A DNA stretch of 32,000 nt, taken from assembly GCF_017876815.1 (NCBI RefSeq), contig NZ_JAGIOS010000001.1, positions 780,001-812,000 on the forward strand. The letters run 5' to 3'. This stretch comes from Sinorhizobium meliloti (GTDB taxonomy: Bacteria > Pseudomonadota > Alphaproteobacteria > Rhizobiales > Rhizobiaceae). The first letter of the stretch is position 1, and every line of letters starts with the position of its first letter. A program made the position numbers and the translations under genes. Shown here in pieces: positions 10,403 through 32,000 of the stretch. The notes under the pieces are model-generated. The model saw only the letters and a list, made by a program, of their open reading frames with translations, did no database searches and was not told the DNA's origin.

Positions 10403-10463
10403 TGCCGCTTGCCCAAAAGCGGGCGGTTTCAAAGACTTGGAGCGGTTGAGCGTAAGGCCGAGG

Positions 10464-12335: not shown

Positions 12336-12344
12336 GGGAACGCC

Positions 12345-12520
12345 GCCCCTCATCCCGCTGCCGCGACCTTCTCCACGCAAGCGGGGCGAAGGAGACCCCG
12401 CGGCACCCGCTCAAATCCCCTCTCCTCTTGTGGACCGCAGCGTGAGAGGGAGCGAGCGTGCGCTGCTTGCCCCTTCGCCCCGCCTGCGGGGAGAAGGGGC
12501 CGGCAGGCGGATGAGGGGCA
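12345..12520. repeat. nested GC-rich palindromic intergenic mosaic repeat (RIME/REP-like) between convergent genes
   Basis: Three hairpins are present: about 12367-12392, 12418-12450 and 12470-12499. The outer arms are inverted copies of each other. The 30-mer at 12345-12374 is 29/30 identical, in reverse complement, to 19169-19198. Confidence 0.7.
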
Positions 12521-12562
12521 CACATCGACAGCAACCGCATCGCGGGATGCCAGCTATCGCCC

Positions 12563-13177
12563 CTACCTCAACCCGACGCTCGCATAGGCCTGGCGAATCC
12601 GCGCCTGGCCCCAGCGCGTCGGTTCGCTGGGTGCAGCACCCGGGCGGTTGATATCCACGCCCTGGCCGGCGGCGACTGTCCGTGTAACGCCGCCGCCCTG
12701 AACGGACACCACGCCATGTTCCACGAACACCGCGAAAGCCGCTCGGCTCGGGCCGCAGAAGAATTTCGTTCCCCGAACGCCGATCATGCCGAAGGCGGTG
12801 CGCACCGCGACGTCCGTCTTGGGCAAACCTTCGGGCCGGTCGAAGACCATCCGGCCGAGGCCCAGCTCCAGGGTTCCGCCCTGGCCGGCGATGTAGCTGT
12901 CGATCAGGAGTTCCGTTTGCGGCCCCAGCAGGATACGCGTTTCGCTGAGCGCGAGATCGGCGAAGCTGTTGCTGCTCGTCAGGACATAATCCTTGTCGAG
13001 AACCGCGCCGCCGATCGCCAGCCGTTCCTCGTCCCCGCCCTGCCGGCGGCGGACATTGCCGCGGATTTTCGCAGCCTTGCCCACGACCGGAGCTGCTGCC
13101 GTCGAACGGCCGCCCGATACGGTGGCAAGCAGCAGGCCGCCAAGAAAGATCCGTCTCCTCATCTCGAACTGCCGCAT
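12563..13177 (-). CDS. FecR-domain periplasmic protein with an RR-type (possibly Tat) signal peptide
   Basis: The N-terminus is MRQFEMRRRIFLGGLLLATVSGGRSTAAA. The FecR-like beta-rich core reads ...LTSSNSFADLALSETRILLGPQTELLID...VAVRTAFGMIGVRGTKFF...VFVEHGVVSV. Confidence 0.7.
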   Translation of the reverse strand: MRQFEMRRRIFLGGLLLATVSGGRSTAAAPVVGKAAKIRGNVRRRQGGDEERLAIGGAVLDKDYVLTSSNSFADLALSETRILLGPQTELLIDSYIAGQGGTLELGLGRMVFDRPEGLPKTDVAVRTAFGMIGVRGTKFFCGPSRAAFAVFVEHGVVSVQGGGVTRTVAAGQGVDINRPGAAPSEPTRWGQARIRQAYASVGLR

Positions 13178-13308
13178 CGGCTTCTCCGCTGCGTTTCGCA
13201 GCGCTCCCTGTTCGGCCTCCGGCTCCTTACGAGGATAGACCGAGGCGTGCCCGATGCAAGACGCATCTTGGGGGCTGCTTCAACTCACCGTTTCATCGCC
13301 TTCACCGC

Positions 13309-13324
13309 TGTTTCCCGCGGAACA
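13309..13324. promoter_or_regulatory. CRP/Clr-type binding site TGTT-N8-AACA upstream of the Sel1-like gene
   Basis: TGTTTCCCGCGGAACA ends 51 nt upstream of the ATG at 13376. Its reverse complement, TGTTCCGCGGGAAACA, is the Clr box I recall for the S. meliloti smc02178 promoter. Confidence 0.7.
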
Positions 13325-13375
13325 GATGCCGGGTCGGGGCGGCCCTAGGATGGTGTCGGTTAGAGGGAGAGCACC

Positions 13376-13837
13376 ATGAAGAAACACGTTGGATCGAGCC
13401 TGTATCACCTGATCGCGGCCGCCGTGGTCTTGCCTCTGGTCGCGACCGCGCCCTCCGCGGCGCGTGCAGGCGATCTCACCGCCGCCGAGCAATGCGACCG
13501 CGAGGCCGGTAGCGAATTCGATCTCGAACGCAACAGGGCTTTCCCCGCCGTTGCGACGGAGGACATCCGCATCGGGGTGGCACTTTCCGCCTGTCGGGAA
13601 GCCTATAATCAGAACGGCGGCGCCCGGACGCAGTTCCAGCTCGCTCGCGTTCTCAACAGGGCTGGACAGAAGCTGCAGTCGGCACGAATTCTCGCCGAAG
13701 CCGCTGGGAATGGCCATGCTCTGGCAATGGCCAGCTATGCCGATCTCCTTGCCGAGCGCGGCATGGCCGGTACGTCCTCCGGCGATTTGCTGACGGCCCG
13801 GCGCTTCGCGCAGGCGACCACGGACGGATTGCAGTGA
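13376..13837 (+). CDS. secreted Sel1/TPR-like repeat protein (smc02178-like Clr target)
   Basis: Signal peptide: MKKHVGSSLYHLIAAAVVLPLVATAPSAARA. Sel1-like helical repeats: ...AEAAGNGHALAMASYADLLAERG.... An SD sequence GAGGGAGAG lies upstream. Confidence 0.7.
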   Translation: MKKHVGSSLYHLIAAAVVLPLVATAPSAARAGDLTAAEQCDREAGSEFDLERNRAFPAVATEDIRIGVALSACREAYNQNGGARTQFQLARVLNRAGQKLQSARILAEAAGNGHALAMASYADLLAERGMAGTSSGDLLTARRFAQATTDGLQ

Positions 13838-13840
13838 TGA

Positions 13841-13879
13841 GGGCGGCGGACCGGTCTTCCGCATAGGTCCGACCCGCCC
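13841..13879 (+). terminator. stem-loop after the Sel1-like gene
   Basis: GGGCGGCGGACC...GGTCCGACCCGCCC forms a stem of about 12 bp with one bulge. There is no strong T-tract. Confidence 0.4.
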
Positions 13880-13948
13880 GAAAATGCCGCTTGACGCCTG
13901 CGAGCAGGCGCAGGAGCGTGACCCGCGAGACATCAACGCGGGACGCAC

Positions 13949-14755
13949 ATGACGAAGCTCATCATTTTCTCCGACCTCCACATGGTGCCCGAAGGCGAGA
14001 CGATCATCGGGCTGGACCCGTACCGGCGGCTCGCCAACGGCATCGCCCACGTAAACCGCTACCATGCGGATGCCGACCGGGTGATCTTCGCCGGCGATCT
14101 GACGCATCGGGCGGACCGCGCTTCCTACGAGCGGCTGAAGGCGCTTCTCGGCGAACTCACCCCCCCGGCGGCGCTCATGATCGGCAATCACGACCGGCGC
14201 GATGTGTTTCTCGACGTCTTCGCGGAAGCGACGACCGACGCAAACGGCTTCGTCCAGCAGGTGCTCGATTTCGCCGATTGCCGCGCGATCCTGCTCGATA
14301 CGCTGTTTGCACCGCCCTACGACTATCCGGTGAGTCACGCCGGCCACCTATGCGACAGGCGCCTTGCCTGGCTCGACCGGCAACTCGAGGAGGCCGGCGG
14401 CCGGCCGGCGCTGATCTTCATGCACCACCCGCCGCATATCAGCGGCTTTGCCGGCATCGATATGATCCGCCTCGTCAACGAAGACGACTTCTACGCCCTG
14501 GTGAAGCGGCACGGAAATGTTCGTCATATCTTCGCCGGCCACGTCCACCGCACCATCAGCGGCTCCAGTCGCGGCATTCCCTTCTCGATCTTCAAAAGTC
14601 CGGTGCACCAGCAGCCTATGCCCTTCGACACCGCGGACGCGTCCCTTTCGGTGGACGAGCCGGCGGCCTACGGCATAGCGCTGGTGACCGGCGACGGCGT
14701 GCTCGTGCATACGGAAGACTACGAGATAGCAAGGCGCGACGCGGTGGGAGCGTGA
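13949..14755 (+). CDS. spdA: class III cyclic-nucleotide phosphodiesterase / metallophosphoesterase (SpdA-like)
   Basis: Calcineurin-like motifs are present: IIFSDLHM, FAGDLTH, MIGNHD, IFMHHPP and FAGHVH. Its position in the cyaD1 locus matches S. meliloti spdA as I recall it. Confidence 0.75.
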   Translation: MTKLIIFSDLHMVPEGETIIGLDPYRRLANGIAHVNRYHADADRVIFAGDLTHRADRASYERLKALLGELTPPAALMIGNHDRRDVFLDVFAEATTDANGFVQQVLDFADCRAILLDTLFAPPYDYPVSHAGHLCDRRLAWLDRQLEEAGGRPALIFMHHPPHISGFAGIDMIRLVNEDDFYALVKRHGNVRHIFAGHVHRTISGSSRGIPFSIFKSPVHQQPMPFDTADASLSVDEPAAYGIALVTGDGVLVHTEDYEIARRDAVGA

Positions 14756-15128: not shown

Positions 15129-15314
15129 CCTATGATCATCCGGAACATTCGCTTGCGCTCCGTATAGTTCTCCTTTTGTCCGGCCTGTCGTGGAGAAACA
15201 TTCGGCCATCAGGCTAATTTGCCGGATGGATGTTCGGCGATGGCACGCGTATTTTCTGCCACGACATCAGGGCGTCGAAAGCGCCCGCTACCGTTCCGTG
15301 GAGGACAGCGTTCA

Positions 15315-18300
15315 ATGAGCCCGAACCCGCTTCAGAAACCCGCGATCGACGCCGCACCTGCGCCCTTCGCCGACTTCGCACCGCCAGTCCGGCCGCAAAG
15401 CACGCTGCGCCGGGCGATCACGGCCGCTTACCGCCGCCCGGAAACGGAATGCCTGCCGCCTCTCGTCGAGGCGGCCACGCAATCGAAGGAAATACGGGAC
15501 GCCGCCGCAAGCACCGCCCGCAAGCTGATCGAGGCGCTGCGCGGCAAGCATAGTGGTTCCGGCGTCGAGGGACTGGTGCAGGAATATTCGCTTTCGAGCC
15601 AGGAAGGCGTGGCACTCATGTGCCTTGCGGAAGCGCTGCTGCGCATTCCCGATACGGCGACGCGCGACGCGCTGATCCGCGACAAGATTGCCGACGGCAA
15701 CTGGAAATCGCATCTCGGCGGCAGCCGTTCGCTCTTCGTCAATGCCGCGACCTGGGGACTTGTGGTCACCGGCAAGCTGACCTCGACGGTCAACGACCGC
15801 AGCCTCGCGGCGGCGCTCACGCGTCTCATCTCGCGTTGCGGCGAGCCGGTGATCCGGCGCGGCGTCGACATGGCCATGCGGATGATGGGCGAACAGTTCG
15901 TCACCGGCGAGACGATCCGCGAAGCGCTGAAACGTTCTAAGGAGCTCGAGGAGAAAGGCTTCAGCTACTCCTACGACATGCTCGGCGAAGCGGCGACCAC
16001 GGCCGCCGACGCCGAACGCTATTACAGGGACTATGAGAGCGCCATTCACGCAATCGGCAAAGCCTCCGCCGGCCGCGGCATCTATGAGGGCCCGGGCATC
16101 TCCATCAAGCTCTCGGCGCTGCATCCCCGCTATAGCCGCGCGCAAGCCGCGCGCGTCATGGGCGAATTGTTGCCGAGGGTGAAGGCGCTCGCTCTCCTCG
16201 CCAAGAATTACGATATCGGCCTCAACATCGACGCCGAGGAAGCCGACCGGCTGGAACTGTCGCTCGATCTCCTCGAGGTGCTCTGCCTCGACGGCGATCT
16301 CTCCGGCTGGAACGGCATGGGCTTCGTCGTGCAGGCCTATGGCAAACGCTGCCCCTTCGTTCTCGACTTCATCATCGATCTTGCCCGGCGCTCCGGCCGG
16401 CGCATCATGGTGCGGCTGGTGAAGGGTGCCTATTGGGATGCCGAGATCAAGCGGGCGCAGCTCGACGGGCTCGCGGATTTCCCGGTCTTCACGCGCAAGA
16501 TCCACACCGACGTCTCCTATATCGCCTGCGCAGCCAAGCTGCTTGCCGCGACCGATGTGGTGTTCCCGCAATTCGCGACACACAATGCCCAGACGCTCGC
16601 CGCCATCTACCACATGGCCGGCAAGGACTTTCACGTGGGCAAATACGAATTCCAGTGCCTGCACGGCATGGGCGAGCCGCTTTATGAAGAGGTCGTCGGC
16701 CGCGGCAAGCTCGATCGCCCCTGCCGCATCTATGCGCCTGTCGGCACCCATGAGACGCTGCTTGCCTATCTGGTCCGGCGCCTCCTCGAAAACGGCGCCA
16801 ACTCCTCCTTCGTGCATCGCATCAACGACCCGAAGGTTTCGATCGACGAACTGATCGCCGACCCCGTCGAAGTCGTCCGCGCCATGCCGGTCGTCGGCGC
16901 CAAGCACGACAGGATCGCCTTGCCGGCCGAACTCTTCGGCGATGCGCGGACCAATTCCGCCGGGCTCGATCTTTCCAACGAGGAAACGCTTGCGTCGCTT
17001 ACGGAAGCGCTGAGGGAAAGCGCGGCAATGAAGTGGACCGCCCTGCCGCAGCTCGCAACCGGCCCCGCTGCCGGCGAGACGCGGACGGTTCTGAACCCCG
17101 GCGACCATCGTGACGTCGTCGGCTCGGTGACCGAGACCTCGGAAGAGGACGCACGGCGCGCCGTGCGCCTTGCCGCCGACGCGGCGCCGGATTGGGCGGC
17201 CGTGCCGCCCTCCGAGCGGGCCGCCTGCCTCGACCGCGCCGCCGAGCTGATGCAGGCCCGCATGCCCACGCTTCTCGGGCTGATCATCCGCGAGGCGGGC
17301 AAATCGGCGCTGAACGCCATTGCCGAGGTGCGCGAGGCGATCGATTTCCTGCGCTACTATGCCGAACAGACGCGCCGCACGCTCGGCCCCGGCCACGGGC
17401 CGCTCGGCCCGATCGTCTGCATCAGCCCATGGAATTTCCCGCTGGCAATCTTCACCGGGCAGATCGCCGCCGCACTCGTCGCCGGCAATCCCGTGCTCGC
17501 CAAACCCGCGGAAGAGACGCCGCTGATCGCCGCCGAGGGCGTGCGCATCCTGCGTGAGGCCGGCATTCCGGCAAGCGCGCTGCAGCTTCTTCCGGGCGAC
17601 GGACGCGTCGGTGCGGCGCTGGTCGCCGCGGCCGAGACCGCGGGCGTGATGTTCACCGGATCGACGGAAGTCGCGCGGCTGATCCAGGCACAGCTTGCCG
17701 ACCGCCTTTCGCCCGCCGGCCGGCCGATCCCGCTGATCGCCGAAACCGGTGGCCAGAATGCGATGATCGTCGACTCCTCGGCGCTTGCCGAGCAGGTGGT
17801 CGGCGACGTGATCACCTCCGCCTTCGACAGTGCCGGCCAGCGCTGCTCGGCACTGCGTGTGCTGTGCCTGCAGGAGGATGTGGCCGACCGCATCCTGACG
17901 ATGCTGAAGGGCGCGCTGCACGAACTGCATATCGGCCGCACCGATCGTCTTTCCGTGGATGTCGGCCCGGTCATCACATCAGAGGCGAAGGACAACATCG
18001 AGAAGCACATAGAGCGGATGCGCGGGCTCGGCCGCAAGGTCGAGCAGATCGGGCTCGCCTCGGAGACCGGAGTGGGCACCTTCGTGCCGCCGACGATCAT
18101 CGAACTCGAGAAGCTTTCCGATCTTCAACGCGAGGTCTTCGGGCCGGTGCTGCACGTCATCCGCTACCGGCGCGACGATCTCGACCGGCTGGTGGACGAC
18201 GTCAACGCCACCGGCTACGGCCTGACCTTCGGGCTCCACACGCGCCTCGACGAGACGATCGCGCATGTGACGAGCCGTATCAAGGCGGGCAACCTCTACA

Positions 18301-19016
18301 TCAACCGCAACATCATCGGCGCGGTCGTCGGCGTCCAGCCCTTCGGCGGCCGCGGTCTTTCCGGTACCGGTCCCAAGGCCGGCGGTCCGCTTTATCTCGG
18401 CCGCCTGGTTACGACCGCACCGGTGCCGCCGCAGCACAGCTCGGTGCACACGGACCCGGTCCTTCTCGACTTCGCCAAATGGCTCGACGGCAAAGGCGCG
18501 CGCGCGGAGGCCGAAGCGGCCCGCAACGCCGGCAGCAGCTCGGCACTTGGCCTGGATCTGGAACTCCCCGGCCCCGTCGGCGAACGCAATCTCTATACGC
18601 TCCATGCGCGCGGCCGCATCCTCCTCGTGCCGGCGACGGAGAGCGGTCTATACCACCAGCTCGCCGCTGCGCTCGCGACCGGCAACAGCGTCGCGATCGA
18701 TGCCGCCTCCGGTCTGCAGGCTTCGCTGAAGAACCTGCCGCAGACCGTCGGCCTGCGTGTCTCCTGGTCCAAGGACTGGGCCGCCGACGGCCCGTTCGCC
18801 GGTGCGCTGGTCGAAGGTGACGCCGAGCGCATCCGCGCGGTCAACAAGGCTATCGCCGCCCTGCCCGGCCCGCTGCTGCTCGTGCAGGCCGCATCGAGCG
18901 GGGAGATCGCCCGCAACCCGGACGCCTATTGCCTGAACTGGCTCGTGGAAGAGGTTTCCGCCTCGATCAACACGGCTGCAGCCGGCGGCAATGCCAGCCT
19001 GATGGCGATCGGCTGA
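15315..19016 (+). CDS. putA: bifunctional proline dehydrogenase / L-glutamate-gamma-semialdehyde dehydrogenase
   Basis: The 1233-aa protein has a PRODH barrel (LSIKLSALHPRY, VRLVKGAYWD) and an ALDH domain (ISPWNFPLAIF, AETGGQNAMIVDSSAL, QRCSALRVL). The ATG at 15315 is preceded by GGAGGA. Confidence 0.95.
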   Translation: MSPNPLQKPAIDAAPAPFADFAPPVRPQSTLRRAITAAYRRPETECLPPLVEAATQSKEIRDAAASTARKLIEALRGKHSGSGVEGLVQEYSLSSQEGVALMCLAEALLRIPDTATRDALIRDKIADGNWKSHLGGSRSLFVNAATWGLVVTGKLTSTVNDRSLAAALTRLISRCGEPVIRRGVDMAMRMMGEQFVTGETIREALKRSKELEEKGFSYSYDMLGEAATTAADAERYYRDYESAIHAIGKASAGRGIYEGPGISIKLSALHPRYSRAQAARVMGELLPRVKALALLAKNYDIGLNIDAEEADRLELSLDLLEVLCLDGDLSGWNGMGFVVQAYGKRCPFVLDFIIDLARRSGRRIMVRLVKGAYWDAEIKRAQLDGLADFPVFTRKIHTDVSYIACAAKLLAATDVVFPQFATHNAQTLAAIYHMAGKDFHVGKYEFQCLHGMGEPLYEEVVGRGKLDRPCRIYAPVGTHETLLAYLVRRLLENGANSSFVHRINDPKVSIDELIADPVEVVRAMPVVGAKHDRIALPAELFGDARTNSAGLDLSNEETLASLTEALRESAAMKWTALPQLATGPAAGETRTVLNPGDHRDVVGSVTETSEEDARRAVRLAADAAPDWAAVPPSERAACLDRAAELMQARMPTLLGLIIREAGKSALNAIAEVREAIDFLRYYAEQTRRTLGPGHGPLGPIVCISPWNFPLAIFTGQIAAALVAGNPVLAKPAEETPLIAAEGVRILREAGIPASALQLLPGDGRVGAALVAAAETAGVMFTGSTEVARLIQAQLADRLSPAGRPIPLIAETGGQNAMIVDSSALAEQVVGDVITSAFDSAGQRCSALRVLCLQEDVADRILTMLKGALHELHIGRTDRLSVDVGPVITSEAKDNIEKHIERMRGLGRKVEQIGLASETGVGTFVPPTIIELEKLSDLQREVFGPVLHVIRYRRDDLDRLVDDVNATGYGLTFGLHTRLDETIAHVTSRIKAGNLYINRNIIGAVVGVQPFGGRGLSGTGPKAGGPLYLGRLVTTAPVPPQHSSVHTDPVLLDFAKWLDGKGARAEAEAARNAGSSSALGLDLELPGPVGERNLYTLHARGRILLVPATESGLYHQLAAALATGNSVAIDAASGLQASLKNLPQTVGLRVSWSKDWAADGPFAGALVEGDAERIRAVNKAIAALPGPLLLVQAASSGEIARNPDAYCLNWLVEEVSASINTAAAGGNASLMAIG

Positions 19017-22753: not shown

Positions 22754-23224
22754 ATGACGATCGCCAGGAGACTTCAGGACTATATCGACAGCGAAGGGAT
22801 CACCTACGACACCCTCGCCCATCACCGTACCGCAACCACCAGTCAGACTGCCGAAGCCGCCCATGTGCCGGGCAACAGGCTCGCCAAATCCGTGGTCGTT
22901 CACCACGAGATGGGCTATGCGCTCGCCGTCGTTCCGGCCACGCATCGGGTCGAGCTCTCCACCCTGCAGGACGTCATGAACCGCCGTCTCGGCCTCGCCT
23001 CGGAGGAGGAGGTCAGCGAGCTCTTCAACGATTGCGAGACCGGAGCCGTCCCGCCCATCGGCGAGGCCTATGGCGTGCCGGTCATCCTCGACGAAAGCCT
23101 CGACAGGGCAAACGATATCTATTTCGAGGGCGGCGACCACAGGACGCTCGTGCATATGAGCGGCACCAATTTCCGCAACCTCACGAAGGATGCGCGGGTC
23201 GCCCGGTTCAGCCATCCGTCGTAA
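22754..23224 (+). CDS. YbaK/EbsC/ProX-like aminoacyl-tRNA deacylase-domain protein
   Basis: LAKSVVVHHEMGYALAVVPATHRVELSTLQ...GAVPPIGEAYGVPVILDESL...IYFEGGDHRTLV fits the family pattern. Confidence 0.65.
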   Translation: MTIARRLQDYIDSEGITYDTLAHHRTATTSQTAEAAHVPGNRLAKSVVVHHEMGYALAVVPATHRVELSTLQDVMNRRLGLASEEEVSELFNDCETGAVPPIGEAYGVPVILDESLDRANDIYFEGGDHRTLVHMSGTNFRNLTKDARVARFSHPS

Positions 23225-23260
23225 GCCGGGCCGCTTATCGGCGGCGGGCCATATCGGGGC

Positions 23261-23932
23261 TCACTGGGCGATCGCCGTCGTGGATATGGCGATGCAGGAC
23301 GCGCTTCCCGCGGGAATGAGCATCCCCTGCCCCTGGCCCTTGCCGAGGTTGTATGTCTGGACGCCCGAGAGCGTATCGGCCGCGGTGCTGCCCGGGGGCA
23401 GGAGCGGAAGGACATCCTTGCATGCCCTGGGGAAGGGCGCCACGCGCAGCATTGCGCCTTCACACCCGCCCTTCGGCAAGGGAGCCGCGAAGACGAAACC
23501 GCCCGCCGGACCTTCGTAGCCGGGGGTCTTGTAGCTGAGGCCGACGATCGCCTGGATCATATGCTCGTCCGCCTTTTCGGCGTTCCAATGGGAGCGGACG
23601 GCATATTGCGACCCGGTCACCAGCATTTCGCCCAGCAGCGGAAATGCCGTCGTGCATCTTTTCATGCCGGCCTGCTTTATGTGATCGGCGAAAACGTTGC
23701 TCGGCACCTTGGCCGGCGTCTCCGCGGCCCGGACCGAGCCATCGGCGGATTGAGCCAGACCGATCACGCCCTGAAAATACAAGAGAGCGACGGCGGCGAA
23801 GCCGAGAACGAGGGTGCCCAGGACACCGAAGAACATTCTGCGCCAGAGGTGCTCCCCGGCAGGAGTCTGTGGGAATGAAGCTCCGCCGGTCTGCGGCCGG
23901 CGGAGCCGGTCGTTTGCATCTGTCTCGGTCAT
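23261..23932 (-). CDS. hypothetical membrane-anchored periplasmic protein (one TM, four Cys), last gene of the surface cluster
   Basis: The TM segment is FFGVLGTLVLGFAAVALLYF. It is followed by a roughly 170-aa domain I do not recognise. The start is 13 nt after the IalB-family stop. The start codon is uncertain; M33 is an alternative. Confidence 0.55.
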   Translation of the reverse strand: MTETDANDRLRRPQTGGASFPQTPAGEHLWRRMFFGVLGTLVLGFAAVALLYFQGVIGLAQSADGSVRAAETPAKVPSNVFADHIKQAGMKRCTTAFPLLGEMLVTGSQYAVRSHWNAEKADEHMIQAIVGLSYKTPGYEGPAGGFVFAAPLPKGGCEGAMLRVAPFPRACKDVLPLLPPGSTAADTLSGVQTYNLGKGQGQGMLIPAGSASCIAISTTAIAQ

Positions 23933-23945
23933 GAGGTCTGCACTT

Positions 23946-24515
23946 CTACTCTATGGCCTCCAGTGCCGGGTTCAGGCCCTTCAGAGGCAGGTTGATGCTG
24001 ATGGTTCCGTCGCCCGTGCCGTAGGAGACCCCGACCGTCGCCTCCCGGGCGATGTTGTCACGCAGGATGGGGCCTACCGGCACCGTCGCCAGGCAGACGC
24101 CGCGGTCGCAGCTTTCCACCTCCACCTCGACCGGCTTCTTGCGGTCGGGGAACGAAAGGCTCACTCTCGACCCCTTGCCGGCGGCCGGAGGCACCCTCAG
24201 GATCATCATCGGCCTGCCTTCCGCGGTTGCGGCGAGCGACCAGCTGAAAATGCTTTTTCCGGACTCGTCGGCGACGTTTTGCGTGATGTTGCAGATCTTC
24301 TGCTTCGTCTTGAAATTCTCGTCGCAAATGAGCGTCCAGTTTCCGAAAGGATGGATGACGCGGCGATACATTCCGATCGGCACATCGGGCGGAACGGCCA
24401 CCTCGGAGGGCTTTATCCGGTAGCGAGGGGCCGTCTCCCCCTCCTGTCCGACGGAGGCGCCGGCAGACAGGATGAAACCGGTGACGGCCGCCAGGCCGCC
24501 GGTGAGGCGCCCCAT
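23946..24515 (-). CDS. invasion-associated locus B (IalB)-family protein
   Basis: A signal peptide MGRLTGGLAAVTGFILSAGASVGQ is followed by FGNWTLICDENFKTKQKICNITQ...IFSWSLAATAEGRPMMILRVP...VEVEVESCDRGVCLATVPVG, the IalB-like pattern with conserved Cys pairs. The start lies 8 nt after the adhesin stop. Confidence 0.75.
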   Translation of the reverse strand: MGRLTGGLAAVTGFILSAGASVGQEGETAPRYRIKPSEVAVPPDVPIGMYRRVIHPFGNWTLICDENFKTKQKICNITQNVADESGKSIFSWSLAATAEGRPMMILRVPPAAGKGSRVSLSFPDRKKPVEVEVESCDRGVCLATVPVGPILRDNIAREATVGVSYGTGDGTISINLPLKGLNPALEAIE

Positions 24516-24523
24516 CGTCCGGC

Positions 24524-27500
24524 TCAGTTGAGCGTGATGCTGAGGCCGGCACCGACACCGACGTTCCCCCCGGCCGCAGCACCGGTCAGGTTCGCCCGGA
24601 CGCGTCCGTCTTCGCTGGTGTAGCCGGCACCGAAGGCGAGCGCCCCTTCGCTTCTCCAGAAGCCGCCGCCGAGCGCCACGCTCAGCTTGCCCGGCTCATT
24701 GTCGAAGCGCAGCGAGGCCGCCGCAAGTCCGATGGCGGCGGCTTGCCGCGCTTCGCTCCGAACCTGCCCGATCTCGCCCGAGAGCTGCGCGAACCGTTGT
24801 TGCGCATAATTGTTCACCGCGCTCACCTTGGTCTCGATAACCTGGTCGGTGTAGATGGCCGCCTGATCGATCGCCCACTCGGTCTTTTCGTCCGTGTAGC
24901 TCTTGCTTTCCGCGACGCTTTCGTCGAGCTGGCCGACATTGACGGCGTCGGTCGCCTTCACGCCCTTGGCCACATTGGCGATGAGCACCGGCTTGTCGGG
25001 ATCTCCTCCCTCGAGCGTCAGCGTGTTGAGCCTCTTGCCGGCAGCGTCGGTATCATAGACGGCAGCGTTCTCCAGATCGCCCTGGAAGCTCTCGATATAG
25101 GTTACGCGGCTGTCGATCTCTTTCACTTCGGTATCGAGCCGATCGACCTTCACGTTCGTGGCGTAAAGCTGGCTGCCGTTGACCGCGTCGGTCGAGTTCG
25201 CGTTCAGGTCGCCCGCGGCGACATTGGTGATCTTGGTGCCGTTAGCCCCCTCCAGCGTCAGGGTGCCCTTGCTTTTGTCGTCATAGCCGACGCCATTCGC
25301 AGTGGCATTCGCAACGACGTCGAAGAGCTGGCCGCCGTTGACGGCATCCTTCGAATCCTTCGCCACCGTACCGTTTGCCACATTCGTGACCTTCATGCCG
25401 CCGGCATCGATGCCATCGGTCGTGACGCTCGGCCCCCCGGTGATGACCAGGCCGTTGCTGCCGAGCATGGTGCTGCCGATCACGATCGAACCGCCGGTGA
25501 TAACAGTGGTCGGCGCATTCGGATCGGCGGGATCGGCACCCACCGTGATGCTTTCGGAGACGTCCAGATCGTCGGCCAGGTCGAAGCTCACGGTGTCGCC
25601 GGTCTCCGCCTTGCTGACGACGATATTGCCGTCGCCGCTGCGAAGATCCACCGTCTCGCCCGGCGCGACATTGGACGCGTTCGCACCCTGCGCCGAGAGG
25701 CTCCAGCCGGCACCGGCCGTGCCGCCCACCGCCGCCAGCGCGTCGCCGACATTGCTGTAGTCGGTGCCGCCGATCGTGTATTTCGGGGCGATCCACTCAT
25801 CCTTGACAGGGTCATAGGCGGCTCCCCCGCCCAGGGCGACGGCCACGTTGGATACGCGGCTGCGAAGCCCGAAGAGCTGGCTGCCGTTGACGGCATCGGT
25901 CGATGCCGCGCTCAAGGCGCCGGGCGCAAGATTGGAGATCCTGGTGCCGCCCATGCCCCCGGCAAGGGTCACGCTATCGAGGTTGAGTTCGCCCTCATCG
26001 ATCACGCCATTCGTATTGGCGTCGGTCCAGTCATATTTGACCGCCCGCTGGTCGGTATTGCCCGATGCGGTCTCGACTTGCCTGAGCTGGGAAAAGTTCA
26101 CCGCGTCGGTGTCGGCCTCGCCCGCAGCGACATTGGTGATTTTGCCGGCCGCTTGGATGCCCGCCGCCGTCACGCGCGGGCCGAGCGCCGTGTCCTCCCC
26201 GTTCGCGTCCTGCGTCGTGAAGCTCAGGCCGTTCTCGTCCAGCACCGTGGATGCACCCGTGTCGGGATCTCTCGCCGTCACCCTGTTCACCTCGATCTCA
26301 TCGGCCAGATCGATGCTCACGTCGTTGCTCAAGATCTGATTGCTGATCACGATATTGCCGTCGCCGCCTTTGAGGACCAACTCGTCGCCCGGCCCGATGC
26401 CGTCGATGCTGCCGCTGTCCGTCGTGAGCTTCCAGCCTGTCTTGGCGATCGTCTCGACCGATTTGAGCTGGGCCACGTTGGCGGCATCGGAGTCGGCCGT
26501 GCCGGCGGCGACACCTGTGATCTGGCGGTAGACGCCGGTTTCGGCGTCCGGATTGCCGACGGCGACCGCGCCGCGCGTGCTCTGCGTCGCCTCGATGGCG
26601 TTTTGGTCGGCCGTCGAGGCCCCGCCCGGCACATAGCCCGCCACGTCGGCACCCGTATCCGAAACCGAGCCGGAACCCAGCGCCACGCCGCCGACTTCGG
26701 TGACGTCGGCACCATTGCCGAGCACGAAGGCATCGGACACATCGATATTGTTGCCGTTGCCGATGACGCGGCTGCCATCGGCGGCATCCGCCAATGTGTT
26801 GTCGTTGCCGAAGGTGCCGGCGTTGTCGGCGGCGATGGTGTTGTCGTTGCCCAGCGAGTAGGAGCCGGTACCGGTGATATCGGTCGGATCGCCGATGGCG
26901 CCGCTCGAAGCGCCGCTGACGGTATTTCCGACGCCGATGCTGATGGACTTCAAACCGGAAGCCACGGCGCCGGTGCCGATTGCGATGGCTTCATCGGCGC
27001 TCGCCAGCGCCTCATTGCCGATGCTCACCGCGTCACTGACCACGAGGTCGGCGCGCACGGCGGTCTCATGTTCGCTCTCGGAAAACTGGATTCCCGCATT
27101 GGTGCCTATGGCGACGTTGTTATCGCCTTCCCGGGAACCGCCCGCCGAATCGCCGATCGCTATGTTTGACGACCCCTTCACCTTCTGACTGGCCGCAACG
27201 CCGAGGGCGACATTGTTCTGACCGGAGGTGGAACCAGTCCCTGAACCTGTGCCGATCATGATATCGCCCGCCGATCCCGACGTGGCTCGGGTACCGATGC
27301 TGATGGAATCGTTCAGGGAGGTACTGCTATTCCAGCCTATGCTGATGGACCGGTCGTCGTTGGCCAGCGCATCCGTGCCTATAGCGACGGCGTCGCGCGC
27401 ACCGCCGTCCGCCTGCGCCGGATCGGCGGCCTTCGTTTTCGCACGCGAGCCGATTGCAATCGACCGATCCGCATTGGCTTCGTTTCTGGCACCGATAGCA

Positions 27501-28888
27501 ATGGCCTCGATGCCCGGCGACTGATTGAAGGCTCCCAGGCTGACAGAGGTTTGCCCGCCTTTGATTCGGTCATTCCCTTCAAACCCGGCGTTGTTGACGA
27601 GGCCGATGCTGACCGATTCGTCGCCATCGGCCCAGCTTTCGGTACCGATACTGACGGATTTGTCACCCACAGCCTTGGCTGCATCGCCAATACTGACGGC
27701 TCCGCTGCTGGCTTGACTGCCCGTTCCGATGCTGACGGACCGGTCGCCGTTGGCCTTGGTATTGGTACCGATAGCGATGGCGTCGATCGCGGCCACGTCA
27801 TCCGGAATATCTAGATTGGCTTCTTTCGTACTCGCGCGCACGCCGAAAGCGATCGACCGGAGACCGCCGGCTGTGGTTTCGGTACCGATGCTGATGGAGC
27901 CCTGCCCCAGGGCATTGTTGCCGGCGCCGAGGCTTAGGGATTGCTCGCCGCTGGCCACGTTGCTGCTGCCGATGCCGATCGAGAGTTTGCCTGTTGCCGT
28001 GTTGCCCGCGCCGATGCCGATGGATTGCTCATTGCCGGCCTGATTCTGTCTGCCGATGGCGAGAGACCGGTCGCCATTGGCCTGTGCATCCGTACCGATT
28101 GCAATGGCATCAGACGCGCCGCCCGGGTCCGCTTCGTTGGCCACCGTATCCGGGTCGTCGACTACCAGCGATTTCGTACGCGCACGCACGCCCATGGCGA
28201 TCGACTGGGAGCCCCCGGCCTTGGTCTGCTCGGCCTCTCGCCAAGCGAAGGCATCATCTCCACCGATTGCGATTGCCCGAACATTGGCCGCGTATGCAGA
28301 CTGCCCGATGGCAACCGATCCGTTTGAATTCGCGTAACTACCGTTACCGAATGCAAGTGAACCGCTGCCGGCCGAGACCGATTGGCGTCCCAGCGCCACA
28401 GAGTTGCTACCAAGCGATTGCGCGACTGAACCTATGGCAATGCCGGAAACCCCAGAAGAAGTCGCCAGGCCGCCGATCGCTATTGCTGAGGCCCCCGTCG
28501 CCTCGGCTGTAGATCCAAGGGCGGTTGCGCCAAACCCGGTTGCAACAGACCCAGAACCCACTGCAGTGGGGCAATAGTCCTTCGTGAAATCGATATCAGA
28601 TGGGGTTCCCTGATTTCCATTACTGGCGATTGAAGTCGAGCAAGCGTTGCCCGTCGCCGCATCGGCGCCGGTCTCGTTGTTGTTATCGCCCGAGACTTGA
28701 GTGGACTTCGTCACCTGCTGCGCCGCGGCAATCGGCGCTAGACCGATCGCCATTGCCACTGCAACCGCGGCCCCTGTGACCCCGGACATCCAGCCGCCCC
28801 GCCCCGCCCCGGCGCCGGCCCCGAGCAGGCCACCTCCCCGGCCGCGGCCGAAGCCCGGCACCCGGCACGACAGCCGCAGCACCGCCAT
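24524..28888 (-). CDS. trimeric autotransporter adhesin (YadA/BadA-like), about 1454 aa
   Basis: Dozens of YadA-head-type repeats are present (SIAIG..A.A.G..S(I/V)(A/S)IG). Six neck/stalk motifs are present: DAANVAQLK, DAVNFSQLRQ, DAVNGSQLF, DAVNGGQLF, DAVNGSQLY and DAVNVGQLD. A coiled-coil stalk leads to a C-terminal 4-strand anchor (AAIGLAAASLRFDNEPGKLSVALGGGFWRSEGALAFGAGYTSEDGRVRANLTGAAAGGNVGVGAGLSITLN). The start is uncertain: I chose the ATG at 28888, with alternatives at 28789 and the TTG at 29008. Confidence 0.85.
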   Translation of the reverse strand: MAVLRLSCRVPGFGRGRGGGLLGAGAGAGRGGWMSGVTGAAVAVAMAIGLAPIAAAQQVTKSTQVSGDNNNETGADAATGNACSTSIASNGNQGTPSDIDFTKDYCPTAVGSGSVATGFGATALGSTAEATGASAIAIGGLATSSGVSGIAIGSVAQSLGSNSVALGRQSVSAGSGSLAFGNGSYANSNGSVAIGQSAYAANVRAIAIGGDDAFAWREAEQTKAGGSQSIAMGVRARTKSLVVDDPDTVANEADPGGASDAIAIGTDAQANGDRSLAIGRQNQAGNEQSIGIGAGNTATGKLSIGIGSSNVASGEQSLSLGAGNNALGQGSISIGTETTAGGLRSIAFGVRASTKEANLDIPDDVAAIDAIAIGTNTKANGDRSVSIGTGSQASSGAVSIGDAAKAVGDKSVSIGTESWADGDESVSIGLVNNAGFEGNDRIKGGQTSVSLGAFNQSPGIEAIAIGARNEANADRSIAIGSRAKTKAADPAQADGGARDAVAIGTDALANDDRSISIGWNSSTSLNDSISIGTRATSGSAGDIMIGTGSGTGSTSGQNNVALGVAASQKVKGSSNIAIGDSAGGSREGDNNVAIGTNAGIQFSESEHETAVRADLVVSDAVSIGNEALASADEAIAIGTGAVASGLKSISIGVGNTVSGASSGAIGDPTDITGTGSYSLGNDNTIAADNAGTFGNDNTLADAADGSRVIGNGNNIDVSDAFVLGNGADVTEVGGVALGSGSVSDTGADVAGYVPGGASTADQNAIEATQSTRGAVAVGNPDAETGVYRQITGVAAGTADSDAANVAQLKSVETIAKTGWKLTTDSGSIDGIGPGDELVLKGGDGNIVISNQILSNDVSIDLADEIEVNRVTARDPDTGASTVLDENGLSFTTQDANGEDTALGPRVTAAGIQAAGKITNVAAGEADTDAVNFSQLRQVETASGNTDQRAVKYDWTDANTNGVIDEGELNLDSVTLAGGMGGTRISNLAPGALSAASTDAVNGSQLFGLRSRVSNVAVALGGGAAYDPVKDEWIAPKYTIGGTDYSNVGDALAAVGGTAGAGWSLSAQGANASNVAPGETVDLRSGDGNIVVSKAETGDTVSFDLADDLDVSESITVGADPADPNAPTTVITGGSIVIGSTMLGSNGLVITGGPSVTTDGIDAGGMKVTNVANGTVAKDSKDAVNGGQLFDVVANATANGVGYDDKSKGTLTLEGANGTKITNVAAGDLNANSTDAVNGSQLYATNVKVDRLDTEVKEIDSRVTYIESFQGDLENAAVYDTDAAGKRLNTLTLEGGDPDKPVLIANVAKGVKATDAVNVGQLDESVAESKSYTDEKTEWAIDQAAIYTDQVIETKVSAVNNYAQQRFAQLSGEIGQVRSEARQAAAIGLAAASLRFDNEPGKLSVALGGGFWRSEGALAFGAGYTSEDGRVRANLTGAAAGGNVGVGAGLSITLN

Positions 28889-29061
28889 CAACCGGCGGCG
28901 GAGTGAGCTGTTCGCCCCCGCGTCCGGATGCCAGTGTCTTGCCAAATCCCGGTTTCGGCGGGTGTCGGAAGATGGATGATTCCTGTAGGTCAAGATACAC
29001 TCTCGCAAATCTGATGAACATGCCCGGGGGCAGGGCCCGGACGGGTGCGCTTCATGTCCCC

Positions 29062-29565
29062 TTATTTCTCGACCTGAACGCGGTAGGTCGTAACCAGCGT
29101 TGCGCCCGGCGGGAGGGCTTCCGAAACCCGCCAGCGGATCTGGCGGTAGTCCGACGCTTCCGCCTCGACGCGGCTTTTCGTGCCATCCTCAAGGGTAACG
29201 GTCTTGTAGGCCGGCACCCCCTGCCAGGACTCGCCGTCGATCAGCACTTCGAAGGCGGCCTTGAGCGAGACCGCGCGCCCGGCGTCGACAAAAGAGGTAT
29301 TGGACGGGATCGGCCCGTTGATGACCAGGCCGGAAAGCGGCTCCTTCGCCACGTTCTCATAGCGCCCCGTGTACTGCAGAAGGTCTCCCGGAGCGGCGGC
29401 CTCGGCGGGCGAGAAGGTTTCCTTTCCACCTTCCCCGATCTCCACGCTCTGTACGCCGAGATTGGCTGAAAGCGGGCTCGCCGGCTTCTGATCCTGCGCC
29501 GCCGCACTCCATGACAGGAGCATCAGGCCGGCCGCAAAAATGGACGATGTAATCGAGTGCCTCAC
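29062..29565 (-). CDS. small secreted DUF11-like (conserved repeat domain) beta-sandwich protein
   Basis: A GTG start at 29565 is preceded by GGAGA. The signal peptide is (M)RHSITSSIFAAGLMLLSWSAAAQ. The mature part reads ...APGDLLQYTGRYENVAKEPLSGLVINGPIPSNTSFV...IRWRVSEALPPGATLVTTYRVQVEK. Third-codon-position GC is high in this frame. Confidence 0.65.
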   Translation of the reverse strand: MRHSITSSIFAAGLMLLSWSAAAQDQKPASPLSANLGVQSVEIGEGGKETFSPAEAAAPGDLLQYTGRYENVAKEPLSGLVINGPIPSNTSFVDAGRAVSLKAAFEVLIDGESWQGVPAYKTVTLEDGTKSRVEAEASDYRQIRWRVSEALPPGATLVTTYRVQVEK

Positions 29566-32000
29566 ACGTTGTCTCCATCTGAAGCGCCGCGCGTCTGACG
29601 GACGTCGATACGGCGTTGAGCGCTGCAAGGCCTGACCTCGAATCGGTCCCGGCACGCAGGGGCGGCTTGGCGCAAGTGGCCGGCCCCTGTGTTTCGGCCG
29701 TCGTCACTTGCGCCGTGACGGTACAGCTGCTCGGCCCGGCCGCAAGTTTGCCCCCGCTGAAGCTGATTTTGTTGCCGTCGGTTACGGAAACACTGCCTTC
29801 GCACTGGGAAACTGCCGGCGTGCCGGCGAGCACCAGGCCGCCCGGCAGGGTGTCGGCGAAGGCAAGCCCTGTCTGCGCGGCCGCATCGGCGGGGTTTGTG
29901 AGCGTGAAGGTCAGCGTGAAGGTCTCGCCCTTCTTCACCGAACCTGCTGAGAATTTCTTGGTCAGCGACGGTTTCAGTTCGGTGATCTGGACATAGCCGT
30001 CGGCGCCTTTGTTGTTTTCGTTGGAGTTGACTGCGGTCAAGGAAGAGGAAGGAGTCCTGACGAACAGGCCGCTTTTGTTGCTGTAGCATGAGCCTCCGCC
30101 CTCCGAGGCGGTTCCGCTGCTCGTGGCGTTGTAGGGATATCCGCTGCCGGCTTTGCCTCCGGTATATCCGCCCCCGCCCCCGCCGCCGCTGCCGCCGTCG
30201 CTACTGCCGCTGATATCGGCGGCAGATGCGCCGTTACCGGAACTATTGCAATTGGCATTCGCTGTGGGAGTTCGGGCGTTTCCGCCATCTTTCGGATCGG
30301 GAGCGGTCGAACCGGACGAGGCTCCGGCCGCGCCGCCGCCGCCGCCGCCGCCGGCTTTCAATACGGTTGTTCCTCCCAGTGCCAGCGAGGTCCCGCCACC
30401 ACCGCCGCCGCCGGGAGAGCCACCGGTAATGCTCGTGGTGTCGCCGCCATCACCGCCTCGTCCCGTGCCGGAGCCTCCGGCCCCTCCATTGTCGCTAAAG
30501 CCATTGACGCCGCCGCCGCTGCCAACCGTGCCGGTGATCGTGTCACCCGGGACAACATTCACGATCGCGTCGATGATCCGGGCTGCACCTCCCTTGCTGA
30601 AGGGGGTCCTGAGGAAGTTATCACCCGTCCCGCCGACGCCACCGACCAACCGCACCTTCACCCGCGTTACGCCCGCCGGGACGGTATAGGTGTAGAGCTC
30701 GCCGCCGACGCCGGTCGTAACGCCGTCGAAACCTTCCAGCCCCGTTGCCGGCTCGACGCTGCCGGGCAGGCGCACCACCCCCTCGACGACGCCGGCAACG
30801 ATCCGCTTGCTGTCGTCGGCAAGGAGCTTCACCTCGGCCTCGTAGCGGCCGAGGCCGTTGCGCACCGCGATCTTGTGGGTGCCGGAGAGCGCCGGCGGAT
30901 AATAGTCGACGAGGGCCTCGCCCTTGTCGACGAAGACCTGGACACCGGGTTCGGTCGCCCGTATGTCCTCGGCCCCCCACCGGCCCCGGCCGGAGGTCTC
31001 GAGCGTCACGTCCATCGAGGCATGGGTGGGAACGCCGTCGGCGTCGACGAACCGGATCAGCACCGGGATGGCCGAGGCCGGATCGGCGAAGGCCGCGGGC
31101 GGAGCCACGAGTTCGATCCGCGCCGGACGCCCGGGCGCCAGAACGGTGATTTCATTGCGCTCGCGGACATTGCCGAACGGGTCGGAAAAAGTGGCCTCGA
31201 GCCTGTTGCGGCCGCCTTCGAGGCGGATCGCGACATATTCGGCCGCCTGAACGCCCCCTGAAGCGTAGACGACCCGCTGGCCGACCTGCCCATCGGAGAC
31301 AGGTTCGCCGTTGAGATTGAGCCCCAGCTTCCCTTCCGCCGGTCCCTTGATGCGGACCGAGACGATGTCGCTGTTGACCAGGCTGTCGGCCTCGAGGTCC
31401 AGAAAGCCGAGTGCCGGCGAGAGCCCGCGGATCTCCGCTTCCAGATCGCGCGTGCGGTCGAGCGCGAGTGCCTGCGGCGCGTCGGCCTTCCCGGATTCTG
31501 CCGACTCTTCCTCCGACTGTTCCCGCGCGACGATCTGCGTTTCGGTGGTCTTGGCCGCTTCGCGGCGGGAAGACGACAGACGCCCGAAGTAATCCACCCA
31601 TTCCTCGCCTCCCGGATTCAGCCGCTCGGGAACGCTTACAGTCTTGCTGGCGGCGATGTTTTCGGCATAGGCCTGCCGGCGAGACTCGAGTTCGGCAAGC
31701 ACCTCCTCGCGGCTCACGCCCTCCCTCGGCGAGACGGCGAAATATTCGCTCACCACCTGCCCCGGCAGCAAACGCAGATAGCGGCTCTGCGGGCTCAGCG
31801 CGTCGCGCGCCGTGGTCGACCGAAGCTTTACCGTTGCCGGCAGCGTGGGCGTCGAAACGGCGATGACATGCGAACCGGGCGGCAGTCCGGGCAGCGAATA
31901 TTTACCGTCGATATCGGTGACGACGCTCGCTCCGTTCGAGAACTGGAGCTTGACGCCCGGAACTCCCGGCTCCACGCGCTCCAACGCACCGTCCGCCGCA
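29357..32000 (-). CDS. giant secreted/surface multi-domain protein; the N-terminus runs off the right window edge
   Basis: The frame is open to the window edge. Domains seen: a Cna-B/carboxypeptidase-regulatory-like segment (GVKLQFSNGASVVTDIDGKYSLPGLPPGSHVIAV); Ig-like segments (IPVLIRFVDADGVPTHASMDVTLE...); a glycine-rich domain at aa 428-669 of the listed ORF (nt 29978-30703); and a DUF11-like domain (SLTKKFSAGSVKKGETFTLTFTLTNPADAAAQTGLAFADTLPGGLV...SCTVTAQVT, nt 29672-29974). The last roughly 100 codons are low-quality and overlap the next gene. Confidence 0.75.
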   Translation of the reverse strand, partial: AADGALERVEPGVPGVKLQFSNGASVVTDIDGKYSLPGLPPGSHVIAVSTPTLPATVKLRSTTARDALSPQSRYLRLLPGQVVSEYFAVSPREGVSREEVLAELESRRQAYAENIAASKTVSVPERLNPGGEEWVDYFGRLSSSRREAAKTTETQIVAREQSEEESAESGKADAPQALALDRTRDLEAEIRGLSPALGFLDLEADSLVNSDIVSVRIKGPAEGKLGLNLNGEPVSDGQVGQRVVYASGGVQAAEYVAIRLEGGRNRLEATFSDPFGNVRERNEITVLAPGRPARIELVAPPAAFADPASAIPVLIRFVDADGVPTHASMDVTLETSGRGRWGAEDIRATEPGVQVFVDKGEALVDYYPPALSGTHKIAVRNGLGRYEAEVKLLADDSKRIVAGVVEGVVRLPGSVEPATGLEGFDGVTTGVGGELYTYTVPAGVTRVKVRLVGGVGGTGDNFLRTPFSKGGAARIIDAIVNVVPGDTITGTVGSGGGVNGFSDNGGAGGSGTGRGGDGGDTTSITGGSPGGGGGGGTSLALGGTTVLKAGGGGGGGAAGASSGSTAPDPKDGGNARTPTANANCNSSGNGASAADISGSSDGGSGGGGGGGYTGGKAGSGYPYNATSSGTASEGGGSCYSNKSGLFVRTPSSSLTAVNSNENNKGADGYVQITELKPSLTKKFSAGSVKKGETFTLTFTLTNPADAAAQTGLAFADTLPGGLVLAGTPAVSQCEGSVSVTDGNKISFSGGKLAAGPSSCTVTAQVTTAETQGPATCAKPPLRAGTDSRSGLAALNAVSTSVRRAALQMETTCEALDYIVHFCGRPDAPVMECGGAGSEAGEPAFSQSRRTERGDRGRWKGNLLARRGRRSGRPSAVHGAL

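Follow-up and report, generated by a model that had tools for sequence, protein, structure and literature searches.

The window analysed here is a stretch of 32,000 nucleotides of Sinorhizobium meliloti (assembly GCF_017876815.1, contig NZ_JAGIOS010000001.1, positions 780,001 to 812,000), and it carries, between window positions 23261 and 32000, five minus-strand genes for surface or exported proteins. An earlier reading made from the letters alone, the sequence-only reading, had taken them for a single undescribed adhesion module. In the present study they probably represent two unrelated surface-protein units lying side by side, a neighbourhood that is specific to the lineage and not functional. 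One unit is a conserved operon of three genes, for a trimeric autotransporter adhesin (TAA), a protein of the IalB family and a third protein of 223 aa. The other is an operon for CLIPPER-domain (formerly DUF11) proteins that ends with a small gene, S, and in which the giant gene of the window is, according to alignments with a relative (L015), an in-frame deletion chimera of two genes, A and B. The five-gene block is not co-conserved, since the CLIPPER loci found elsewhere are without the triad and 36 loci with the triad are without CLIPPER genes. The features of the region are as follows.

23261..23932, minus strand: gene for the 223-aa protein (ORF, open reading frame); third gene of the TAA operon
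23946..24515, minus strand: IalB-family gene (PF06776); second gene of the TAA operon
24524..28789, minus strand: TAA gene, 1421-aa form (eight YadA_head, six YadA_stalk, YadA_anchor; other starts at 28945 and 29008)
28790..29061, minus strand: gap between the small gene and the TAA gene, from the coordinates; probable site of the TAA operon promoter
29062..29565, minus strand: small gene S, 167 aa, GTG start (conserved N-terminus, ribosome-binding site, third-position G+C content); last gene of the CLIPPER operon
29357..29629, minus strand: putative read-through tail of the giant ORF, formerly B-S intergenic DNA, and the 5' part of S in another frame
29684..29971, minus strand: DUF7933 domain (CnaA-like, isopeptide-type; PF25564, E 3e-20), derived from gene B
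29975..30691, minus strand: glycine-rich domain, from the mature N-terminus of gene B (51% identity to L015 B)
30692..32000, minus strand: part of the chimera derived from gene A that lies in the window (immunoglobulin (Ig)-like, SdrD_B, CLIPPER; 68% identity to L015 A)

All five ORFs were confirmed by the ORF listing, and all but that of the 223-aa protein by Pfam or NCBIfam matches as well; the order of the genes, their export signals and, in essence, their domain identities had been read correctly from the letters. The giant ORF is free of stops up to base 32000 and its gene runs about 2.2 kb past the end of the window; extension to the right, as had been advised, recovered its N-terminus (a protein of 1620 aa in full, with a Sec signal peptide) and two further genes outside the window. 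The nearer one, 5' of the giant gene, encodes a 907-aa CLIPPER/NEW3 protein, M, which makes the same-strand run one of six genes, and M is preceded by a gene for an FMN-dependent dehydrogenase. The spacers were said to be short, which holds for the triad (8 nt between TAA and IalB genes, 13 nt between the IalB gene and that of the 223-aa protein) and not for the distance between S and the TAA gene, which is 116-272 nt depending upon the TAA start chosen. The cluster products are the S. meliloti SM11 proteins AEH77377-AEH77381 (exact-sequence match); one contig (L002) is 100% identical to window 23001-32000, and another (L011), with one base different, reaches further upstream. Strain 1021, with which this part of the window had been thought not to be syntenic, carries the block as well: its small protein is identical (167 aa, CAC41894.1), and it has the 223-aa gene (Q92SE3_RHIME) and the TAA (gi 15964211), so that the block is not foreign to 1021. 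The locus tags SMc02177-80 and SMc02187-92 were tried as the 1021 tags of the cluster and are wrong, SMc02187 being an integrase of a different island; they did lead to the cyaD1/clr/spdA locus nearby.

By its domain matches, the gene at 24524-28789 is a trimeric autotransporter adhesin of type Vc. Within the window it matches YadA_head (E 2e-32), YadA_stalk (E 1e-58) and YadA_anchor (E 1e-12); the anchor (PF03895, residues 1436-1492 of the ORF) scores 48 bits against a cut-off of 22.7, and the passenger contains six stretches of stalk (PF05662, 196 bits) and eight of head (PF05658, 112 bits). The start may be at 28789 (1421 aa), 28945 (1473 aa, as annotated) or 29008 (the maximum extent of the ORF), and the 1421-aa form begins with a signal peptide that was read from the sequence, MSGVTGAAVAVAMAIGLAPIAAAQ followed by Q. 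The C-terminal 260 residues match the Vomp model NF033870 (E 3e-69) with 234 bits, below its cut-off of 500 bits. The promoter of the operon presumably lies in the gap at 28790..29061; a scan for the sigma-70 consensus found none there, and consensus scans for promoters and terminators and a tandem-repeat search of the DNA were uninformative. In two S. meliloti strains, an insertion sequence (IS) of the Transposase_mut family lies within the TAA gene (L003 6588-7784 and L005 6583-7779, about window 26730-27930). Frameshifts affect the TAA gene, the giant gene or M in further assemblies, those with frameshifts including GCA_054089545.1, GCA_002197165.1, GCA_051041345.1 and GCA_028888255.1. The IalB protein (189 aa) covers the whole of the PF06776 model (positions 1-131 of 131; E 3e-25, 89.2 bits against a cut-off of 22.1), has a signal peptide ending in ...SAGASVGQ and is without a lipobox cysteine. 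The exact protein was found in 1195 collection blocks, from S. meliloti assemblies, and a sequence search of the PDB gave nothing usable.

The order of these three genes is strict. Among 36 metagenome loci, which were found via the 223-aa family and of which several are near-duplicates of one another, an IalB gene lies directly upstream of the 223-family gene wherever there is room for it (33/33), and in all 29 loci with room the IalB gene is itself directly preceded by a TAA anchor. Three further contigs (L037-L039) have the same order, and no CLIPPER-module gene was found within 8 kb at any of the 36 loci. TAA-IalB-223 is thus a conserved operon, strict in order, of TAAs of the Hyphomicrobiales type. 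The C-terminal 235 residues of the TAAs are 53-74% identical to those of S. meliloti across the loci, while the passengers are about 30% identical. In 14 of the 15 long metagenome loci a DUF4189 gene lies 3' of the 223-family gene, in eight there is a second IalB gene, and in several loci AraC-type regulators lie upstream of the TAA. The operon of S. meliloti has none of these three additions, its next gene being a convergent tRNA_edit gene 36 nt away. The continuation with DUF4189 and a second IalB can be seen at L046 8613-9604 and at equivalent sites in L043, L049-L051 and L059-L063, and on one metagenome contig, Ga0058692_1000030, the entire TAA-IalB-223 unit is present twice (L068, L069).

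The third protein has no Pfam or NCBIfam match, nor was there any Pfam match among 66 members of its family, which numbers 231 representative relatives at E<=1e-3. An AlphaFold2 model based on the 66-sequence alignment reached a mean pLDDT of 85, and more than 95 for residues 80-223; the single-sequence prediction was poor (pLDDT 52). In the model, a disordered linker joins a transmembrane helix (about residues 28-53) to a compact alpha/beta domain (80-223), and the protein is accordingly predicted to be bitopic in the inner membrane, with a cytoplasmic N-terminus and a periplasmic domain. Three cysteines (Cys93, Cys157 and Cys213) are invariant in the family and a fourth, Cys171, nearly so. 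A Foldseek comparison of the model with the PDB returned no match (best E 0.07, TM-score below 0.3), so the domain is confidently modelled and its fold appears to be new; the sequence search of the PDB yielded nothing usable. A type IV pilin was matched by the family profile in the PDB (E 1e-4), a match that spans the hydrophobic N-terminal helix only and was discounted because the protein has no prepilin motif and has a cytoplasmic leader of 33 residues.

The history of the giant gene emerges from L015 (GCA_003024595.1, PYJP01000003.1), which has at the same position the genes M, A (1965 aa), B (1195 aa) and S. Although labelled Mesorhizobium plurifarium, its flank from tRNA_edit to putA is fully syntenic with S. 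meliloti and 89% identical in DNA sequence, which suggests that it is a Sinorhizobium/Ensifer strain. The surface genes diverge far more than this flank (amino-acid identity 68% for A, 76% for S). L015 B consists of a signal peptide, a glycine-rich domain, three DUF7933 domains, SpaA_4 and CLIPPER. Residues 1-1176 of the S. meliloti giant are 68% identical to L015 A residues 1-1175, and at 30692/30691 the similarity switches, within a few residues, from A to B: the giant reads ...GVGGELY/TYTVPAGV..., where A has ...GVDGELY/LQGKVRGD... and B has ...GPGSYS/YTVPAGV.... Beyond the junction, the glycine-rich domain is 51% identical over 243 aligned residues to about residues 55-290 of L015 B, and the one DUF7933 domain shares 61-62% identity with each of the three repeats of B. 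The homology to B ends at about residue 1530 and the DNA that follows aligns with the intergenic region between B and S of L015; the ORF has therefore lost its own stop and runs on into S. What is missing from S. meliloti is A from about residue 1177 to 1965 and B from about 430 to 1195. From these alignments, the giant gene is an in-frame deletion chimera of A and B, and its last 90 or so codons are read-through over the start of S, not real coding sequence.

Domain scores for the giant in the window were E 3e-20 for DUF7933 and E 2e-5 for DUF11; over the full length, they are 65 bits for DUF11, 70 for DUF7933 and 48 for SdrD_B, and M has 59 bits for DUF11. Gly_rich_2 (PF21722) had no match in S. 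meliloti at E<=1, and the corresponding region of L015 B reached 17.8 bits (E 0.004) against a cut-off of 24.3. With the probable barrel region of the A-type proteins gone from the S. meliloti giant, and with no OmpA gene at the locus, no anchor in the cell envelope was found. Among 12 assemblies, the ORF is broken in four for the giant gene, in four for the TAA gene (two of them by the Transposase_mut IS) and in one for M; the disruptions suggest decay of the CLIPPER set.

The small gene is often mis-called. S is read here as a protein of 167 aa (29062-29565) with a GTG start and the ribosome-binding site GGAG 8 nt upstream, at 29574-29577, within an ORF that spans 29062-29655; its signal peptide ends at ...SWSAAAQ, before DQ, and the match to the TIGR01451/DUF11 type is weak (E 4e-5). 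It appears to be a single-domain, CLIPPER-like secreted protein, and homologs elsewhere have 161-198 aa and are conserved from the signal peptide on. The first 70 or so codons of S overlap the tail of the giant ORF in a different frame, and the G+C content at third codon positions (GC3) over the overlap is 0.72 in the frame of S and 0.58 in the giant-frame tail, real genes here having 0.77-0.84. Among S. meliloti annotations, 631 contigs give the protein 96 aa and 139 give it 167 aa, and lengths of 75-153 aa occur too; S is called too short because the overlapping read-through tail of the longer giant ORF takes precedence. A programmed frameshift between the two genes was considered and rejected, the overlap being explained by the deletion and S having its own ribosome-binding site. 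The sequence-only reading had proposed a fibre/subunit relation between the giant and the small protein from a shared C-terminal fold; this found no sequence support, as BLAST gave no significant similarity between S and the C-terminal domain of the giant (E > 0.2), the shared profile matches are at superfamily level only, and the giant appears to be a deletion chimera. In an alignment of the family (A1), the lysine at the expected isopeptide position of S is not conserved. Two contigs with a 75%-identical small gene (L019/L020, positions 1-60) break off within a palindromic element, ATTCCTGTGACAAGCACAGGAAT, some 180 nt upstream of that gene; the element resembles a rhizobial intergenic repeat and may explain these assembly breaks.

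A genome scan with the S family, which used two short peptide patterns and did not return S. meliloti or L015 themselves, and so under-samples, found the CLIPPER module (M, A, a B-like gene and S, in varying order) in Chelativorans, Halomonas/Vreelandella, Polaromonas and metagenome-assembled genomes, spanning alpha-, beta- and gammaproteobacteria. About 12 CLIPPER loci (L015, L016/17, L024-L033) are all without genes for a TAA, IalB or the 223-aa protein within 10 kb, and in L015 and L018-L020 a tRNA_edit gene directly follows S. Over the whole of its roughly 2000 residues, L015 A has homologs in the A-type proteins of Halomonas, Vreelandella, Polaromonas and uncultured gammaproteobacteria, and the long form is therefore ancestral. 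For the C-terminal 790 or so residues of A, no Pfam family and no sequence relative in the PDB was found. The C-terminal half of the family gives sub-threshold matches to OMP_b-brl, BBP2, BBP2_2, DUF2490, YfaZ and Phenol_MetA_deg, its profile finds the Vibrio cholerae porin OmpT in the PDB (E 1.5e-4, weak support for a barrel), and the sequences end in barrel-like terminal strands, all of which points to an outer-membrane barrel region. Large proteins of the A type are widespread (L015 335-6232, L016 13825-20055, L026, L029-L033), with Big_1, Invasin_D3, SdrD_B and CLIPPER domains N-terminal to the conserved, weakly porin-like region of about 790 aa, and Lysobacter, Pseudoxanthomonas and Steroidobacteraceae have shorter relatives of about 1100 aa. 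Nothing published on the M/A/B/S module was found.

How the two units might work, and how the second may have decayed, can be outlined as follows. The TAA would be exported by Sec, its YadA anchor forming a trimeric outer-membrane barrel that displays the head-and-stalk fibre, a route that is well established for the family. The IalB protein would be periplasmic and the 223-aa protein anchored in the inner membrane, with its four-cysteine domain facing the periplasm; the two may be dedicated partners that assist or tether the TAA, probably via its conserved C-terminal residues (about 235), in a role analogous to that of SadB for SadA and of TpgA for AtaA. The ancestral CLIPPER operon would have comprised M, A (an array of Ig-like and CLIPPER domains in a protein of about 2000 aa that ends in the 790-aa barrel), B (a glycine-rich tip, three DUF7933 domains, SpaA_4 and CLIPPER) and S. 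A first, in-frame deletion would have fused residue 1176 of A to about residue 58 of B, with loss of the A barrel and the B signal peptide, and a second would have taken out the stretch between about residue 430 of B and a point just before S, leaving no native stop. The chimera would not be anchored in the outer membrane as A is, and the CLIPPER set of S. meliloti may best be regarded as a remnant under relaxed selection.

It is conceivable that all five genes, or really six, form one co-functional module for adhesion or host contact, CLIPPER proteins and TAA being assembled or regulated together. In S. meliloti all are on the same strand, every product is exported, and a Sinorhizobium-like relative has an IalB-228 pair immediately upstream of an M-type gene. 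Even so, this is very unlikely: outside Sinorhizobium-like genomes the two units do not co-occur, neither at the 36 triad loci nor at the dozen or so CLIPPER loci within the distances given above, tRNA_edit directly follows S at four of the other loci, and 116-272 nt separate S from the TAA gene. A different view of the triad is that IalB and the 223-aa protein, with DUF4189 elsewhere, have an envelope function of their own (in redox or cell-wall processes, or in interaction with the host, a role that has been proposed for Bartonella IalB) and are merely co-transcribed with the TAA. This is possible but doubtful. IalB paralogs are often found away from TAAs (bioRxiv 10.64898/2026.01.22.700529), the two proteins have no sequence similarity to SadB or TpgA, and the four conserved cysteines together with the frequent DUF4189 would suit a periplasmic set of disulfide-containing proteins; against it stand the strict linkage and order in every informative locus, the very short spacers, and the conservation of the TAA C-terminus alongside these genes while the passengers diverge. 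The 1620-aa chimera, for its part, could be a working, newly combined protein, exported by Sec and then, together with M and S and by another route, either set free or retained on the surface. The fusion preserves the reading frame and the A signal peptide, with the glycine-rich tip and one DUF7933 placed at the end, the ORF is intact in most of the 12 assemblies, and M and S are intact, S with its ribosome-binding site. This too is rather unlikely, as the sole recognisable outer-membrane anchor and the native stop codon are lost and the frame is disrupted in the remaining four; the strains are about 99.9% identical here, so that the open frame does not speak for selection.

Favoured over these, and probable, is the reading of two independent units outlined above. 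A bolder joint proposal goes further and is possible but rather unlikely: IalB and the 223-aa protein, mostly with DUF4189, would be a dedicated periplasmic apparatus for the assembly or tethering of Vomp/BadA-type TAAs of Hyphomicrobiales and, separately, the A-type proteins would represent an undescribed CLIPPER display system of the outer membrane. Several points weigh against the favoured reading. The helper role of IalB and the 223-aa protein is conjectural, and IalB paralogs are common away from TAAs, as noted above. In 8 of the 12 assemblies the chimeric ORF is open over its 4.86 kb and keeps the signal peptide, so the chimera may still be made and used, and some of the frameshifts may be errors of long-read sequencing. 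The assignment of the barrel draws on weak matches. Finally, in a Sinorhizobium-like contig (L021 1-4602, Logan DRR783110) the IalB-228 pair lies 800 nt upstream of the M-type gene, in the same orientation; the units are thus neighbours in two arrangements in Sinorhizobium-like genomes, and there could be a link between them.

The combination of genes had also been said to map to no described system, a view that the literature contradicts for the TAA and IalB. In Brucella abortus, the TAA BtaE/BatA (BAB1_0069) and an IalB (BAB1_0070) lie on one strand and are reported to be bicistronic (PMC7688925), and a survey of January 2026 listed 188 IalB homologs beside TAAs in Hyphomicrobiales, with an accompanying small signal-peptide protein, and judged the association to be possibly incidental (bioRxiv 10.64898/2026.01.22.700529). 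The pairing is therefore already published, and the strict linkage of a third gene, that of the 223-aa family, is added here. Brucella belongs to the same order of bacteria and has the same arrangement, TAA and then a same-strand IalB; its spacing is 209 bp instead of the 8 nt of S. meliloti, which is a plant symbiont. SadB, for SadA of Salmonella, and TpgA, for AtaA of Acinetobacter, are likewise small envelope proteins of TAA operons that act periplasmically on display or anchoring (PMC3953254, PMC12523085). However, SadB is a trimeric lipoprotein, whereas the IalB of S. meliloti has no lipobox and no relation to it in sequence or family, and TpgA has an OmpA-like peptidoglycan-binding domain that neither IalB nor the 223-aa protein possesses; no OmpA or other helper-type match was found in either protein with Pfam or NCBIfam. 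Unlike either system, the operon has two small proteins, of which one has its anchor in the inner membrane. By the two marks of such helpers, a lipobox or an OmpA-like peptidoglycan-binding domain, IalB and the 223-aa protein do not belong with them, and the likeness is one of operon position only. With BadA and the Vomps of Bartonella, the S. meliloti TAA has in common the head-stalk-anchor build, and its ortholog in strain 1021 was used in a comparison of the BadA head (PMC2483945); its passenger is much shorter and has different repeats.

For the CLIPPER unit, the closest parallels are fibrillar adhesins. PF01345/DUF11 was renamed CLIPPER as a CnaA-like, isopeptide-type stalk domain of such proteins (PMC12617251), and members such as B9T28_05395 of Acinetobacter silvestris (PDB 9IFR) are likewise large and Sec-exported, with CLIPPER, CLIPPER_2, SdrD_B and DUF7933 domains of CnaA/CnaB-like type (PMC12617251). 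The Acinetobacter protein has its own C-terminal OmpA-like anchor, whereas the M/A/B/S relatives have the predicted barrel region on A and separate M, B and S proteins, and S. meliloti has lost the barrel. Inverse autotransporters (intimin/invasin) resemble the A-type relatives in combining Big_1 and Invasin_D3 Ig-like domains with a large outer-membrane barrel, but the order of domains is reversed in the A type, Ig-like at the N-terminus and a putative barrel of about 790 aa at the C-terminus, and there is no IAT_beta match.

IalB-family proteins have been known as invasion factors of Bartonella since the 1990s, without a mechanism. If the joint proposal is true, this 'invasion' family would gain a concrete molecular role, and IalB and the 223-aa protein would be a third kind of TAA helper after SadB and TpgA, unrelated to both. 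Likewise, display by A-type proteins would consist of an N-terminal Ig-like array on a barrel region of about 790 aa, of which S. meliloti keeps a remnant. With the triad so strictly linked, the function of IalB can be tested directly in an organism with easy genetics. At this locus the TAA alone is plausibly a working adhesin, and it, rather than a five-gene system, is hence the target for attachment and nodulation studies. Annotation is affected as well: most S. meliloti records give the small gene as 96 aa, not 167, and the chimera as a bona fide DUF11/DUF7933 protein of 1620 aa.

Usher, sortase or type I secretion system (T1SS) genes, for which a look at the neighbours had been advised, were not found at the locus; the gene tables for 10 kb on either side contain no usher/chaperone or sortase gene, and the A-type proteins have no Usher match. 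A chaperone-usher or sortase pilus was rejected on this account, and a T1SS adhesin was rejected as well, given the N-terminal Sec signal and the absence of T1SS genes. Elsewhere in the window, positions 9698-14755, mainly on the plus strand, are the cyaD1 locus, known from the cyclic AMP-dependent autoregulation of infection (PMC4222275, PMC5498481), and putA follows it:

9698-10402, in the window: clr, Crp-like regulator; cyaD1 locus
10437-12335, in the window: cyaD1, CHASE2 adenylate cyclase; cyaD1 locus
12563-13177, minus strand: FecR-domain gene; cyaD1 locus
13949-14755, in the window: spdA/SMc02179, metallophosphoesterase; cyaD1 locus
15219-19016, in the window: putA; after the cyaD1 locus

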